In this document: positions 19,603 through 30,354 of the stretch, in pieces
Layout of the letters: the number at the start of each line of letters is the position of its first letter
How positions within the stretch are numbered: position 1 is the stretch's first letter
Origin: Verrucomicrobiota bacterium
GTDB taxonomy: Bacteria; Verrucomicrobiota; Verrucomicrobiia; Limisphaerales; SIBE01
NCBI GenBank assembly: GCA_046346765.1
Contig: JAXMHN010000006.1
Coordinates: forward strand, 88,799 to 152,798
Length of the DNA stretch: 64,000 bases
Reading direction: 5' to 3'
Program-made: the position numbers and the translations under genes
Notes under the pieces: model-generated
The model's database searches: none
What the model saw: only the letters and a program-made list of their open reading frames with translations
What the model was told of the DNA's origin: nothing

Positions 19603-22001
19603 CTATCGTAGGGCTGCTTGCCTGGTCCGCACCCGATATAGCCGCAGGGGCTGTCCGGTTGACGCTGGATCCACAAGGCGACTCACACCGCTCTCCGAAC
19701 TTACCGTTCCCAGACTCTCCCACGTCCTTAAGTCCGACGTTCCTTCCAGATCGTAGGATTGGCCCGGTTGGCCGCGCACCGTCAGAACCCATCGCCCGCC
19801 TGCGTCGCGCTCGCCTCCGAGCGTTAGGCCGTCGAGATTCGACTGCAGGTTGACGCTGTTGGCAGCTTTGGCGGCCGCCGCATCGGTCACGGTCACTGCT
19901 ACGATGCGGCTTCGGACGACGCCGGTGAAATTGTTGATCGCCAGTTGATAGGCGCCGCTGTGGTTGGCCTGGATGTTGTAAAACGTGAGAACCGGCTTGT
20001 TGCTGCCTGGAAGAGCGACGCCGTTTAGATACCACTGGTAGGTGCAAGGCACCTCGGTGCTGACGCTGACTTTCAGGACCAGTTGCTCGCCCGTCACCAA
20101 GGCCTGATCCGCGGGTTCCTCCGTAATGACGGGACGCGCAATCACCCGCAGTAACGCCGGTTGACTCGAGCGCACGCCGTCAGGATTAGTCACCGTCACC
20201 TGGTAACTGCCCGCATCGGCACTTTGCGCGTCCGAACGGTGAAGCTGTTGCCGATCGCGCCTGGAATCGTCTGGCCGTTCAGCGACCAGGCGAACGACAG
20301 TGGACCTCGACCCGTCGCCGCGGCGACGAATGTGGCGCTGGCGTCCTGGGCGATCGTCAGCGGCAACGGCTGCAGCGTGATGACGGGCGGGTAACTGACT
20401 CGCAAGCTCACACGCGGCGACGTGGCCGTGCCGAGTCGATTGCTGATAGTGAGGGAGTAGACGCCTTCGTGGGCCAGTTGCGCTCCGGGAATGGTCAGGC
20501 GCGGTGTCGTTGCTTTTGGAATGGCGGAACCTTCGAAGAACCACTGGTAACTCAGCGGGGCTCCTCCGCGGGCCGCCGCAGAAAAGACAATACTTTTGCC
20601 GTTGGTGACGACCTGGCTGACCGGAAGGGAGGTGAACCGAGGCGCAGTGAAGATTACCACGGAGCAGGCGGCGGAGCGGCCGGTCCCGTCCATGTTGGTC
20701 GCTTCAACTGTGTAGTAGCCACCGTCGCTCTCCTGGGCGTTGCTGACGTGCAGAACGGGGTTCGTTTCGTTCGGCAGCAGCCTGCCGTCTTTCAGCCAGC
20801 GAACCGTCATGGGCTGCCAACCTTGGAGAACCGGAGTGATGACGAAGGGTTGGCCCTCATCCACGGCTGGAACTGCCGGCAGAGTAATCACCGGCGGCGC
20901 TTTCACCCACAGCGAAATGTCCGAACTGGTCGCGATGCCCAGCCGGTTGCTGACCACAACCCGGTAGATCCCGGCCGCATTCGTTTGCACCGCGCCAAGC
21001 ACCAGGTCGCTGGAGTTGCTGCCGACCGGTCTGTCATTTTGGAACCACTGATAGGCGAGTGTTTCATCTCCATCGGCTCGGACGCGCAGGACCACTGGCG
21101 TCTTTTGCGGAACCGATAGATTTTGTGGCTGGGAAAGGATCCGGGGCGGCAGTCTGATGGCCAACGTGGCCAAACCGCTGACGGCCTTGCCGCTTAGATT
21201 CGTGACCGTCACGCGGTAAGCGCCGACATCGCCCGGCCCGACCGAAGGCAGCGTCAACGTCGCCTCGTTCGCTCCGAGCAGACGTGTTCCGGATCGCTCC
21301 CATTGATATCCAAATGGCCCCGTCCCGCCGACAGTCACGTTAAACACGGCCGGCGCCCACAAATCCGCGACGAGGCTTTGTGGCCCGCCCGTGATGACCG
21401 GCGCCTCCGCGACCGTGACGACGGCATCGGCGCTGCGGACGCTGCCGGCCGGATTCGAAACGACCACCGAATAGCGGCCCTGGCTGGCAGGTTGAAGCTG
21501 ACTGATCTGGCAGGTCCTCGCGCTCTGGCCGGGCAACGCCAGGTCATTAAAGAACCATTGATAACGCAACGGACTTGCGCCGGCCGCCGTCACTTCCAGT
21601 AGGATGCTTCCATTCCTTGCCGCGACCGCACTTTTGGGTTGGACCACGATTGCTGCCGCCTCGAGCTCCACGGGGCAGGAATAGGTCAGAGTATCACCCG
21701 GCTCACTCTCGATATCATCCGCGCCGACAGAGGTAGCCCGAATGGCATAGGTCCGGCCGGGGATCAATTCGACCGCTTTGGTGCACTCCATGCCGGCGGC
21801 CAGAGGTTCGCCTGGGTCTTTTCCCAATTCGGCGATGTAAATGCGATAACCGACGACGTCCGGAGAAGCGCTTGGGTCCCAGGCTAACTGATACGTTTTG
21901 GCTTGCAGATCTAAACCAAACATCAGTCCAAGAAGTGCGCTCCACACGCCCCAATGCGAGCGAGCGCAGATGGACGGACGCTTGAAAAAAATCGGCCACA
22001 T
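19603..22001 (-). pseudogene. secreted FN3 + 7x Ig-like (I-set type) repeat protein with C-terminal ...LYRV module; one frameshift near 20226-20243
   Basis: Signal peptide from M at 22001 (MWPIFFKRPSICARSHWGVWSALLGLMFG). An FN3-like segment (YQLAWDPSASPDVVGYRIYI) is followed by repeats of the form YQWF.NG..LPG......L.........G.Y.V.V.N..G. ORFs 20196..22112 and 19603..20544 are two frames of one gene (GNSFTVR | DAQSADAGSYQVTVTNPDG). Confidence 0.75.
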
Positions 22002-22247
22002 TAGCACCCTAGGTGCCACCGCCGCTCCCGTTCCAGAGCGCGCTCGACACCGCCACCGGCCAACTGCGCTGCGCCAAGGCCGTTCTTCCTCACGTCCCTC
22101 CGTTCCCCGCAACGGGCCGTTGCTTTCGCCGCCTTGGCACCGTCCTGATTTGGATCAATCGCTGCCTCCGGTGGCCAAGCGATAGACAGTGGCCGTTTGC
22201 CAGTCCCGGCCGAGCCAAAATGGCGCCCGGCCCTCCGTCCTCCGCCC

Positions 22248-23639
22248 CTACTTGGTCGAGACGTTGTATTCCAATTCGACCACGCCTCGTGTCAGGAGGG
22301 GAGCGTAGTCAAATTGGTGTTGCAGCTGCCACCAGGCAGTAATGCCTATGGCAGCGGTGCTGTGGTAAAACGAGTCGTCCGCCGCGCCAAACTCGCGCAA
22401 ATCGTCATCGTCCAATCCAAAGACATCATAGAGCGCGAACTTCAACTTGATCCGGTACTCCTCCGTGCACGAATGATACTCGTACTCCTCGACGTAAACG
22501 ACCACGTACTGAACCCCGTTAATCATCACGCCCAGCCCGTTCCCAAAATCGTCCGTGCCCCGCACTTTGCTGCCGATGTTGAAGGCAGGAACTCCCAGAT
22601 CGGTTATGGGCTTGACGGCATTCACATCCCAACCAGCAGCTTGCAGCGCTTGATGAATCCTCGTTTTACTCTTATCGGCGCCGGGTGTGCCAGGGGCAGA
22701 CACGGCTCGGTTCGCAAACGAGACGAAGTTAGTATGGGTGCTAATGGCCGCGTCGAGCGACGGGTCGCTAAACACCACGATGGAAGATTTCTTGGAGAGA
22801 AAGTCGTCGAGGAGGCGCTTGGCCATTCCGGTTTTGTCATTGGCAGCGAATTCGCCCAGCAGTCGGCGCATTTTGGCGTCCAGGGCGGAAGCAGTCGTGC
22901 CGACCGATTCGCCGCCCGGAGCGGTCCGGCCAGTGGCGTGAGTGATGTCCTGGCCGAAACCGAGCGGGGCGCCGTAAAGGATATCGTCGTTCACGGGTTG
23001 GCTTACCGTCGGGGAAAGGTACTTGTCCGTGGCCTGAGCGATGAGGAAAGGCTTTTTCAAATAGATCGATTTGCACGTTTGAACCAGCGTCAATCTCGCC
23101 AGCGTGGTGGTGCAACGCGGCACATCTTTGGTCGTCTCGGTGGGACCATGCACTTGTCCCGCGCCCGGCGAATGGTGGGCCTTCTCGGCTGTAATATGGT
23201 AACTCCCGGGGTTGACCTCGCCGAAATCAGCATAACCATCGGCGTTGGTCTCGAGTGAACCCAGGCCATCGACAACCACCGTCGCCCTTTCGACCGGACC
23301 GTCCTTGTCATCCGAAACACGCACCACCAGGTTGGCTTTCTCGCACGGCAGGACCGGGTCTTTGGGGTCGACCTTGGGTTTCGGCGGCTGCTTTTTCGAG
23401 GTCTTCCGGCGCGCCTCGATATAGGCATCCATCCAGACCCGGCGGCAGAAGGCATCATCCGCCTCCATGGTGAGTTGGCGCCGCGTGCCATCGGCGCTCG
23501 TCAGGCGCGGGCAATTGCTCCAGGTCGCTTCGTTCGCTGCCCGGGTGGCGTCGGGGTCGAGCGGCGTATCAGCGCGGCGATTGGCCGTGCCGACCCATTC
23601 TTTCCCGCAACCATAAGGGCAGACGATCCGTTCGGCCAT
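22248..23639 (-). CDS. multidomain cytoplasmic-looking protein: Cys-rich N-terminus, carboxypeptidase-regulatory-like beta-sandwich, C-terminal DUF3289-like putative toxin domain
   Basis: No signal peptide. MAERIVCPYGCGKEW at the N-terminus, then a K/P-rich linker. The beta-sandwich segment is NLVVRVSDDKDGPVERATVVVDGLGSLETNADGYADFGEVNPGSYHITAEK. C-terminal motifs YDVFGLDDDDL and ITAWWQLQHQFDYAPLLT resemble my recollection of the DUF3289 family. Confidence 0.5.
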   Translation of the reverse strand: MAERIVCPYGCGKEWVGTANRRADTPLDPDATRAANEATWSNCPRLTSADGTRRQLTMEADDAFCRRVWMDAYIEARRKTSKKQPPKPKVDPKDPVLPCEKANLVVRVSDDKDGPVERATVVVDGLGSLETNADGYADFGEVNPGSYHITAEKAHHSPGAGQVHGPTETTKDVPRCTTTLARLTLVQTCKSIYLKKPFLIAQATDKYLSPTVSQPVNDDILYGAPLGFGQDITHATGRTAPGGESVGTTASALDAKMRRLLGEFAANDKTGMAKRLLDDFLSKKSSIVVFSDPSLDAAISTHTNFVSFANRAVSAPGTPGADKSKTRIHQALQAAGWDVNAVKPITDLGVPAFNIGSKVRGTDDFGNGLGVMINGVQYVVVYVEEYEYHSCTEEYRIKLKFALYDVFGLDDDDLREFGAADDSFYHSTAAIGITAWWQLQHQFDYAPLLTRGVVELEYNVSTK

Positions 23640-23648
23640 GCGATCAGG

Positions 23649-24005
23649 TCATTGCTGGCTCCGGCCGCCGAAGATGACGTATTCGTTCAGCCGGTTCACC
23701 TTTTCGGTCTCACTCATGCCCGGATCTTCCAGGACACGCCGGGCACCGGAAAACGCGGGTGTATCGTAAAAGTCCAGCCCGTGCCGGACGGTATACTCGA
23801 GAAACGTCTCCAGATTGGCCTCGTCGCGGATGCCGAACTGATTGGCCTTTTCGACCCCAGTCCGAATGAGGCGGTCCAGTTGCTCGTCGGCCAGAGAGGC
23901 TGTTTCGGGGCGACAACGCCGGCGCAACCGGGCGGCCATACGCTCGACAAACCCCTTAAAGACATGGTCGCTCAAGGCCTTCATCTGGGCTTCGCGAATG
24001 ATCAT
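23649..24005 (-). CDS. small helical hypothetical protein (118 aa), 9 nt upstream of the DUF3289-like gene
   Basis: In-frame ATG at 24005 (MIIREAQMKALSDHVFKGFVERMAARLRR...). The upstream 171 codons of track ORF 23649..24518 are Arg/Pro/Ser-rich and span the intergenic repeat region, so they were rejected. Confidence 0.6.
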   Translation of the reverse strand: MIIREAQMKALSDHVFKGFVERMAARLRRRCRPETASLADEQLDRLIRTGVEKANQFGIRDEANLETFLEYTVRHGLDFYDTPAFSGARRVLEDPGMSETEKVNRLNEYVIFGGRSQQ

Positions 24006-24176
24006 TGTCGTTTCAAGGTGACAATGAGGTGAACCGTGCGGATTGGCAACCCTTGCGCAGCGGCGTTCCCATTCCGCAGCAGCCGCAATCAACGTTCCTG
24101 TTATTCGGAGTTCTCCTTTCGACAACCTGTCGGCGTTCGGGACGGCCGCCGGGATTGATGCGGCATCCCTGCGTCC

Positions 24177-24209
24177 TTTGTTCGACGTTTGTTCGACGTT
24201 TGTTCGACG
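24177..24209. repeat. three perfect tandem copies of TTTGTTCGACG (11-bp period)
   Basis: Read directly: tttgttcgacg tttgttcgacg tttgttcgacg ttt. The array lies in the divergent intergenic region between starts at 24005 (-) and 24398 (+). Confidence 0.95.
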
Positions 24210-24397
24210 TTTACCGATGGAAGGTCGAAGGAGGCTTGGATCTGGGCTGGACCTGTCTCGACTGGAGGCAGGGTCGGGCCAGCAGCCGCTTGGGGTGGAG
24301 AAGAGCTTTACTCGCAGGCGAACCAGCCGCAGATTCGAGAGCACTGCGGTTGGCTGGGGTTTGAGACAAAAAAGGTTCGAATGCCAGGTGCGGGCAT

Positions 24398-26295: not shown

Positions 26296-26640
26296 ATGGG
26301 CACCAAGCTATTCGTCGGGAATCTATCCTTCGACGTCATTGAAAACGAGCTGCAGGATTTGTTCGCACAAGCAGGAGCCGTCACTTCTGTCGACATCATG
26401 CAAGACCGGACGACCGGACGCTCCCGAGGTTTCGGCTTCGTGGAGATGGGCTCTGACGCCGATGCCGCCAAGGCCATCACCATGTTTAACGGGAAAGACT
26501 TCAAAGGACGCGCTTTGACAGTCAATGAAGCCCGGCCGCGCGAAGAGCGAGGCGGTGGCGGCGGCGGTTATCGCGGCGGCGGCGGCGGCGGTTCGCGCGG
26601 CGGTGGCGGCGGCGGGTACCGTGGTGGCGGCCGTCGTTAA
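26296..26640 (+). CDS. RRM-domain RNA-binding protein with glycine/arginine-rich (RGG) tail
   Basis: RNP2 KLFVGNL and RNP1 RGFGFVEM motifs. The C-terminus is GGGGGGYRGGGGGGSRGGGGGGYRGGGRR. Confidence 0.95.
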   Translation: MGTKLFVGNLSFDVIENELQDLFAQAGAVTSVDIMQDRTTGRSRGFGFVEMGSDADAAKAITMFNGKDFKGRALTVNEARPREERGGGGGGYRGGGGGGSRGGGGGGYRGGGRR

Positions 26641-30078: not shown

Positions 30079-30354
30079 CCAAGAACCCAAGGAACCAAGA
30101 ACCCAAGGAACCAAGGAACCAAGGAACCAAGGAGCCAAGAACCCAAGGAACCAAGAACCAAGGAACCAAGGAGCCAAGAACCCAAGGAACCAAGGAACCA
30201 AGGAACCAAGGAGCCAAGAACCCAAGGAACCAAGAACCCAAGGAACCAAGAACCCAAGAACCCAAGAACCCAAGAACCCAAGGAACCAAGGACCCAAGGA
30301 GCCAAAGGACCAAGGAACCAAGGAACCAAGGAACCAAGGAACCAAGGAACCAAG
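30079..30354. repeat. about 34.5 tandem copies of an 8-nt unit (CCAAGGAA and variants), noncoding
   Basis: Hand segmentation: 17x CCAAGGAA, 10x CCAAGAAC, 4x CCAAGGAG, one each of CCAAGGAC, CCAAAGGA and the 7-nt CCAAGAA, plus a terminal CCAAG. The + strand has no T from 30061 to 30357. Confidence 0.95.

Follow-up and report, generated by a model that had tools for sequence, protein, structure and literature searches.

A putative orphan T6SS cargo-effector module with a free-standing adaptor lobe in a Verrucomicrobiota genome

The 64-kb stretch of Verrucomicrobiota DNA analysed here (contig JAXMHN010000006.1; hereafter the window, meaning the whole stretch) carries on its minus strand two adjacent genes that probably constitute an orphan cargo-effector module of a type VI secretion system (T6SS). 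Of the two, the first encodes a 118-residue helical protein that we read as a co-TecT-like C-terminal lobe (C-lobe) of a Tap adaptor, and the second a 463-residue effector composed of a short N-terminal region (N-dom), a transthyretin-like (TTR) β-sandwich and a toxin domain of the DUF3289 superfamily. The toxin would act on the envelope of the target cell from the periplasm, and the immunity gene in cis appears to have been lost. An earlier reading made from the sequence alone had proposed an undescribed pair of a DUF3289-like toxin and a small partner, and this sequence-only reading is partly supported by the results below.

Open reading frame (ORF) analysis confirmed the gene pair with the coordinates, sizes and spacing previously given, the 118-aa ORF at 23649..24005(-) being followed after 9 nt, in the same frame, by the 463-aa ORF at 22248..23639(-). 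Both start codons are confirmed, since the homologues start at the same residues; the ATG of the small gene is position 24005. A longer, TTG-initiated version of the small gene (289 aa) was rejected because homologues start at the ATG and because the extension overlaps the divergent promoter region. A Kyte-Doolittle scan detected a hydrophobic segment in neither protein and, therefore, neither a transmembrane (TM) helix nor a signal peptide is indicated, the lack of the latter having already been claimed for the 463-aa protein. Proteins identical to both are found in an NCBI Verrucomicrobiota metagenome-assembled genome (MAG; the small one is U1G07_05125), confirming the Verrucomicrobia-like origin that the sequence had suggested, and window positions 20366-24204 recur with 100% identity in an independently assembled Logan contig (L015; run SRR26348421).

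The effector ends in a divergent toxin domain of the DUF3289 superfamily

A search that covered 5.8 billion proteins recovered 294 relatives of the 463-aa protein, conserved with 50-57% identity over a C-terminal unit of ~275 aa. This toxin domain (aa 189-463; 22251..23075, minus strand), modelled by AlphaFold as a confident α/β domain (aa 190-463, pLDDT >90), also occurs on its own, as proteins of 275-281 aa, and is otherwise fused to PAAR (P0005), VgrG/Phage_base_V (P0018 and P0058), LysM, SH3_3, OmpA or Amidase_2 plus PG_binding_1 (P0079), or preceded by an N-terminus as in the window protein. The PAAR fusion has the order PAAR-TTR-toxin and is 66% identical over 79% of the query, while a stand-alone homologue (P0111) is encoded less than 10 kb from vgrG and hcp. 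The polymorphic-toxin and T6SS-effector setting proposed by the sequence-only reading is thus upheld by fusions to PAAR and VgrG, and the combinatorial pattern of polymorphic toxins is found at both ends: the N-dom occurs with a metalloprotease (locus L007, see below) or with the DUF3289-like toxin of the window, and the toxin domain with varied N-termini.

How close the domain stands to DUF3289 itself depends on the level at which it is compared. A profile of the family matched PDB entries annotated as "DUF3289 family protein" (9jdi_A, E 3.4e-11; 9jg8_B, E 1.2e-10; also 9jg9), pairing YDVFGLDDDDL and AWWQLQH of the window protein with WDHFGLDAPDL and AWFILQH, respectively. In Foldseek, the AlphaFold model is matched best by 9jdi_A (E 3.2e-10, prob 1.00, 236 columns), an entry for the Bacteroides fragilis T6SS effector-immunity complex BtpeA CTD-BtpiA, the other top matches of the 463-aa model being carboxypeptidase transthyretin-like domains and similar sandwiches. 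At the level of family models, Pfam DUF3289 (PF11692) covers aa 362-450 (89 aa) only, with 19.9 bits versus a gathering cut-off of 25, NCBIfam TIGR03034 (YPO3983) scores 16.1 bits versus a cut-off of 156.45, and the PF11692 hit is carried by one (P0087) of 120 listed homologues. The toxin domain is a distant DUF3289 relative at the level of superfamily and fold and no Pfam-level member: the earlier recognition of DUF3289 from C-terminal motifs stands in the first sense and fails, at the gathering threshold, in the second. Invariant residues across 120 toxin-domain sequences include D364, D405, F407, G408, D410, D411, W436, W437 and Q440, with H329 and H441 at least 90% conserved; the Asp-rich YDVFGLDDDDL and the WWQLQH motifs, invariant or nearly so, likely form the active site.

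Published DUF3289 proteins suggest what such a domain might do. A Yersinia PAAR-DUF3289 protein reported in 2024 has a colicin M-like structure (similar to PDB 4G76), is toxic in E. coli only when in the periplasm, causes cell rounding and is neutralised by a membrane-anchored DUF943 protein (PMC11148199). An orphan DUF3289 protein of Aeromonas jandaei is a bona fide T6SS effector whose immunity protein, a small protein with a signal peptide and three TM helices, is encoded downstream (PMC12135965), and a spike complex of defined structure contains BtpeA (Bfe5) together with the adaptor BtapC (PMC13402684). By analogy, we infer that the target is a cell-wall precursor or the peptidoglycan layer of a neighbouring Gram-negative cell, with lipid II cleavage as the activity that the published DUF3289 work would suggest. 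The LysM, SH3, OmpA, PG_binding and amidase fusions, which are frequent, are an independent pointer to the cell wall.

A poorly ordered N-terminal region, a linker and a β-sandwich precede the toxin domain

The AlphaFold model of the effector (mean pLDDT 86.8) is poorly ordered over aa 1-100, with helices at 29-37 and 63-79. These helices lie in the N-dom (aa 1-80; 23400..23639, minus strand; pLDDT 38-65), which displays a four-Cys stretch (C7, C11, C43 and C65) specific to a subgroup, a conserved P-L-D...R..WM..Y helix and residues that are invariant in 13 full-length homologues (P26, L46, L56, R66, W69 and Y73). The N-dom, which is also present on the unrelated metalloprotease effector of L007, is proposed here as the adaptor-recognition region.

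It is followed by a Lys/Pro-rich linker of low to moderate pLDDT (aa 81-98; 23346..23399, minus strand), containing KKQPPKPKVDPKDP at aa 82-95, and by the TTR or carboxypeptidase-regulatory-like sandwich (aa 99-188; 23076..23345, minus strand). AlphaFold models the sandwich confidently at aa 102-185 (strands 102-184, pLDDT >90), and its Foldseek matches are transthyretin-like domains, those of carboxypeptidases D, N and M (E about 5e-6 to 2e-3). The sequence-only reading had pointed out the Cys-containing CPYGCGKEW, the linker and a carboxypeptidase-regulatory-like sandwich: the first is present at aa 7-15, the second as just described, and the third is borne out by AlphaFold and Foldseek, even though the Pfam model CarboxypepD_reg (PF13620; aa 105-161, E 6.8e-6) remains below threshold with 26.8 bits against a cut-off of 32.3. 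Two cysteines that flank the sandwich, C99 before it and C189 as the first residue of the toxin domain after it, are invariant in the 13 full-length homologues, and the same sandwich sits between PAAR and toxin in P0005.

The small partner resembles the C-lobe of Tap adaptors

The AlphaFold (AF2) model of the 118-aa protein (23649..24005, minus strand) consists of six helices (pLDDT 88.9), and its sole outstanding Foldseek match is chain B of 9r8g, the adaptor Tap3 in its complex with the toxin Tke5 (TMq 0.72, rmsd 2.7 Å, 109 columns, prob 1.00), the next match having a TMq of 0.23. In Tap3, an α/β DUF4123 domain occupies aa 1-198, and contact with the effector is made by the bundle of five helices that forms the C-terminal part, aa 199-302 (PMC12909789). 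Colautti et al. showed that such adaptors hold VgrG with the N-lobe and the effector with the variable C-lobe, and noted that they may be split into one ORF per lobe, the case of TecT/co-TecT of Pseudomonas aeruginosa (PMC11582642).

A word-indexed protein search with the 118-aa protein returned itself alone. HMMER, run exhaustively on 1.84 billion cluster representatives (50% identity), uncovered a family of at least 1157 clusters at E<=1e-3, with members mostly of 112-125 aa. Two members tie the family to Tap adaptors by their architecture, as both carry the family domain, detected by phmmer, at the position of the Tap C-lobe: P0152 (309 aa) has DUF4123 at aa 21-142 (E 4e-24) and then the family domain at aa 184-294, whereas P0259 has an FHA domain and DUF4123 (E 4e-33) and then the family domain at aa 322-431. 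No Pfam or NCBIfam family is consistently matched among 100 members, the family profile itself giving noise; searched against PDB sequences the profile likewise gives noise only, and P0152 shows no sequence-level tie to Tap3. The 118-aa protein has no Pfam hit and no DUF4123 N-terminal α/β lobe, the part that binds VgrG, and we read it as a free-standing adaptor C-lobe of the co-TecT kind. Tandem duplications of the domain were also seen in about 10 of the best 150 relatives (P0123, P0153, P0171, P0197, P0216 and others), in proteins of 220-259 aa with two matched stretches.

The small gene accompanies the delivery end of the effector

In seven other loci with the same N-dom, the toxin gene is likewise preceded directly by the small gene, so that the pair is co-conserved. 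Additional loci came from pattern-based scans for the small family, which gave one locus each from genome contigs and from metagenome contigs. The sizes of small protein and toxin, 118 and 463 aa in the window, are 113 and 466 aa in P0002, 114 and 405 aa (as called) in P0004, 118 and 467 aa in L004, 155/147 and 443 aa in L005/L006, 118 and 485 aa in L010 (Ca. Thiosymbion) and 118 and 475 aa in L014. In L008 the small protein has 120 aa and the toxin starts with MSKKTVCPHGCGKEW and is cut short by the end of the contig. A TagH-like gene (FHA plus T6SS_FHA_C) is located ~4 kb from the module of L010. At the locus of the PAAR-fused toxin P0005 the small upstream gene is absent, and a 192-aa gene lies downstream.

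Locus L007, from a deltaproteobacterium MAG (CAVSVC010000030.1, 4137-12958), places a member of the small family among T6SS genes, in the order vgrG (Phage_GPD, E 7e-97), a DUF4123 ORF, the small-family member, an effector and a signal-peptide protein. The effector (510 aa) shares the N-dom and ends in an HExxH metalloprotease, and a second small-family member then precedes a 780-aa PG_binding_1/C39-like protein, giving two successive small-protein/effector pairs. The vgrG and DUF4123 genes of this contig are broken by frameshifts, probably sequencing errors, so that one bilobed gene may underlie both the DUF4123 ORF and the first family member.

Comparison of the loci shows which part of the effector the small protein follows. 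Similarity of the small proteins correlates with that of the N-doms (Pearson 0.91, Spearman 0.76; 21 non-independent pairs from seven loci) and shows no significant correlation with that of the toxin domains (Spearman 0.41, n=10). Two comparisons illustrate this: between the window and L007a the small proteins are 37% and the N-doms 53% identical and the toxins unrelated, whereas between the window and L004 the small proteins are 24%, the N-doms 36% and the toxins 57% identical. Thus, what the small protein accompanies is the effector's delivery end and not its toxin.

Two other loci contain arrangements of interest in their own right. In a Nannocystales MAG (L009, JBFPDY010000787.1, 9001-12056) a small-family member overlaps by 4 nt the gene of an 898-aa protein in which a protein-arginine deiminase (PAD) domain is recognised (E 2.8e-54), possibly a toxin of the arginine deiminase type delivered by a T6SS. 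Upstream of the small-gene/N-dom pair of L008 (24-1533), the end of an effector-like ORF with an unrecognised C-terminal domain is followed by a 174-aa single-TM protein, an arrangement that suggests tandem arrays of effector-immunity modules.

The window locus lacks the gene that follows the toxin elsewhere

A gene of 170-194 aa follows the toxin gene in all seven related loci (189 aa in P0002, 192 aa in P0004, 171 aa in L004, 184/194 aa in L005/L006, 170 aa in L010 and 181 aa in L014), its position in L008 falling beyond the contig, and the window is the only one of the eight loci without it. The four downstream proteins that were translated (L001, L004, L005 and L010) have 4-6 predicted TM helices and can be aligned end to end; that of L014 resembles them as judged by eye, and those of P0002 and P0004 are known by size. 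None of the four matches a Pfam family, DUF943 included. These multi-pass membrane proteins are likely the immunity proteins.

At the window locus the stop codon of the toxin gene is followed by a non-coding gap of ~324 nt (21924..22247, minus strand) that holds no such ORF in the list of ORFs of at least 25 aa, and then by a gene for an immunoglobulin (Ig)-repeat protein, an arrangement that recurs in the independent contig L015. Neither DUF943 nor any other membrane or periplasmic immunity gene lies directly downstream of the toxin, and tblastn of the four multi-TM immunity candidates against the 64-kb window gave no match. The ORF list and the tblastn search together corroborate the earlier remark that the window has no obvious immunity gene.

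Surroundings of the gene pair

A tblastn search of the window for VgrG, PAAR and DUF4123 and a Pfam scan of the neighbouring genes support the sequence-only reading in seeing no secretion apparatus. The scanned neighbours comprise an amidohydrolase/ADH/enolase-superfamily cluster, a sodium:solute symporter, a DUF5107 protein, CotH/EF-hand proteins, a dioxygenase and the Ig-repeat gene, with no mobile-element or secretion gene among them. Searches of PLSDB plasmids with both proteins (tblastn) gave no match, and neither protein is matched by PADLOC defence models. The C-terminal half of the toxin gene had been described as AT-richer than its neighbours; the GC content of the stretch (0.545-0.575 at 22200-22800) is matched by comparable dips at other window positions and the third-position GC content (GC3) of the 463-aa gene (0.72) is typical of the genome, so the difference is not meaningful, and a recent horizontal transfer, at which it had hinted, is rejected on the same grounds.

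Upstream of the small gene, the divergent intergenic region towards the DUF5107 gene (24006..24397) contains 3.3 perfect tandem copies of an 11-nt unit, AACGTCGAACA on the minus strand (24177-24212, TRF), ~175-210 nt upstream of the small-gene ATG; the repeat could be a regulator-binding site. A sigma-70-like promoter scan of the region, which is not informative for this phylum, found none. The Ig-repeat gene downstream of the toxin (19603-22112, minus strand; six Ig_3 repeats, E 2e-51) appears frameshifted, as ORF 20196..22112 continues in another frame as ORF 19603..20544 with further Ig repeats; it is a pseudogene, or else the assembly is in error. Farther away, an octanucleotide satellite, CCAAGGAA/CCAAGAAC, extends over 276 bp in ~35 copies (30079-30354) of the intergenic region upstream of an EF-hand/dockerin-like gene and causes an AT-skew spike of 0.725; since its period is not a multiple of 3, it is presumably non-coding. 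On the plus strand, 26296-26640 encodes, judging by its translation, a small RRM-type RNA-binding-like protein with a long Gly/Arg (RGG-like) tail, whose GGC-rich repeats also show in TRF.

Discussion

We favour, as the probable explanation, that the two genes form an orphan T6SS cargo-effector module. In such a module the 118-aa protein would bind the N-terminal region of the effector in the cytoplasm of the producer and pass it on to the VgrG/PAAR spike, either directly or via a separately encoded DUF4123 N-lobe. After T6SS-dependent injection by this organism, the toxin domain would attack the cell-wall precursor or the peptidoglycan layer of the neighbour, as its DUF3289 relatives lead one to expect. 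The domain homologies, the fusions, the conserved gene order and the missing downstream gene are observed; the binding of the two proteins, the dependence on a T6SS in this organism and the chemical target are proposed.

Several observations weigh against this interpretation. The immunity gene is absent at the locus, an unusual situation if the effector is active against bacteria, and none of the T6SS genes looked for was found, either by tblastn for VgrG, PAAR and DUF4123 in the 64-kb window or among the Pfam-scanned neighbours. The scores of both DUF3289 family models, Pfam and TIGR03034, are below threshold. The E-value of the Tap3 match is marginal (0.057), and the Foldseek result does not report which Tap3 residues are aligned; that they are those of the C-lobe we infer because the model is all-helical and because the domain occupies this position in the DUF4123 fusions. 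The sample of gene contexts comprises ~10 loci, and the similarity correlation is built on non-independent pairs. Lipid II as the target is two inferential steps away, because colicin M is not among the top 50 Foldseek matches of the 463-aa model and because DxYDx5HR, the motif of colicin M, is absent from the toxin domain.

An unlikely alternative is that the module is real and leaves the cell by another route, be it an extracellular contractile injection system, bacteriocin-like release by lysis or some other Verrucomicrobiota pathway, with the small protein serving as a cytoplasmic chaperone for the disordered N-terminus. The 64 kb without T6SS genes would fit such a route, as would the homologous modules that are also orphan (L004 and L014, for example) and the many homologues with LysM, SH3 or OmpA N-termini, which bind cell walls and are not T6SS parts; colicin M, moreover, is released and imported without a T6SS. 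However, the same toxin is fused to PAAR and VgrG, the small family has DUF4123 fusions and a vgrG-DUF4123 context, hcp/vgrG or tagH lie near homologues, and orphan T6SS effectors are common (PMC12135965).

It is improbable that the locus is a decaying or silent remnant in which the immunity gene was lost in a rearrangement and neither ORF functions any longer, as might be concluded from the unique absence of the downstream ~170-194-aa gene among eight loci, the frameshift in the adjacent Ig-repeat gene and the failure to find a promoter-like site. Both ORFs are nevertheless of full length and keep all family-invariant residues, their codon-position GC content is typical of the genome, immunity could be encoded elsewhere, and the sigma-70 scan says little in this phylum. 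Finally, the tight linkage of the two genes (9 nt, same strand), their co-conservation and the lack of another immunity candidate in the window would suit a toxin-immunity pair in which the 118-aa protein binds and neutralises the DUF3289-like domain, but we consider this very improbable because the protein has no signal peptide or TM helix, unlike the membrane or periplasmic immunity proteins of periplasm-acting DUF3289 toxins, its family also precedes unrelated toxins (the metalloprotease and the PAD arginine deiminase) and is fused to DUF4123 adaptors, the small gene is absent beside the PAAR-fused version of the same toxin, its similarity tracks the N-dom and not the toxin domain, and a separate ~170-194-aa gene, multi-TM in the four cases translated, follows the toxin in 7/7 related loci. 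The 118-aa protein is, then, probably not an immunity protein: it behaves as an adaptor lobe and not as the neutralising partner that the toxicity test proposed by the sequence-only reading implied.

A T6SS effector, a split Tap adaptor and a DUF3289/colicin M-like toxin are, as kinds, already known. The pair is therefore not "undescribed" in the sense once claimed, as DUF3289 was published as a colicin M-like T6SS toxin in 2024, with a crystal structure in 2025, and split DUF4123 adaptors are on record. New are a toxin clade outside the reach of Pfam, a large unannotated family of adaptor lobes, an N-terminal recognition region common to different toxins, the Verrucomicrobiota host and the absent immunity gene; the literature on T6SS in Verrucomicrobia yielded nothing usable. 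A broader proposal, possible though doubtful, is that the 118-aa family, the N-dom and the TTR sandwich constitute a widespread and undescribed T6SS effector-loading module whose free-standing C-lobe, with no adjacent DUF4123 N-lobe, docks on the spike directly or shares an N-lobe encoded in trans, and which reaches phyla such as Verrucomicrobiota with a toxin that is intact without a cognate immunity gene. If so, such loading would extend to phyla in which T6SS biology is almost unexplored, and an intact cell-wall toxin without its immunity gene would imply that the producer is intrinsically resistant or that immunity is provided in trans.

These results suggest a likely function for two unannotated families, the divergent DUF3289-type toxin clade (~300 detected) and the helical family (>1000 clusters). 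With them, the "bilobed adaptor" model of how T6SS effectors are loaded takes in free-standing C-lobes, potential markers of new effectors. The results also suggest that Verrucomicrobiota, Acidobacteriota-like and Myxococcota genomes harbour interbacterial toxins of the T6SS type, carried as portable modules of three genes. With its immunity gene missing, the window locus offers a natural test of whether such toxins persist without protection in cis.

Among known systems, the DUF3289 T6SS toxins (Yersinia T6EC1/DUF943, the Aeromonas jandaei effector and BtpeA; PDB 9jdi, 9jg8 and 9jg9) have the fold and the C-terminal motifs in common with the window toxin, in which D405, FGLD 407-410, D413, W436 and LQH 439-441 align with BtpeA. 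Both the known toxins and the window toxin lack a signal peptide and have PAAR or VgrG fusions in the family, and periplasmic toxicity with an effect on the cell wall is described for published members. The window toxin differs in its low identity (~17%), in the N-terminal half of its domain, which the DUF3289 model does not recognise, and in belonging to a well-conserved clade of its own (50-57% identity, 294 hits). The immunity candidates at the loci of this clade are 4-6-TM proteins and not DUF943, and the delivery module of N-dom, TTR sandwich and small helical partner is unlike the published PAAR or BtapC arrangements. The mechanism proposed for DUF3289 from its fold similarity to colicin M (PDB 4G76) is periplasmic action on the peptidoglycan precursor (PMC11148199); unlike colicin M, the window protein has no translocation or receptor domains, and its delivery is presumably by injection.

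The 118-aa protein shares with the Tap adaptors (Tap-1, Tap3, Tap6 and Tap14) its helical make-up, approximately the size of the C-lobe, a Tap3-like structure and the position of its gene directly upstream of the effector. Like a Tap C-lobe, it varies with the N-terminal region of the effector, and TecT/co-TecT provides the precedent for split lobes. It differs in having no DUF4123 N-lobe, with none encoded nearby, and no sequence similarity to Tap3, and the effector region recognised would be a short, poorly ordered domain as opposed to a MIX domain or Rhs cage. The "specialised" PAAR-TTR-toxin effectors of the T6SS, of which P0005 is an example, have a transthyretin-like sandwich before the toxin as does the window protein, in which PAAR is replaced by the N-dom and a separate small partner; the window protein is therefore a cargo effector and not a specialised spike protein.

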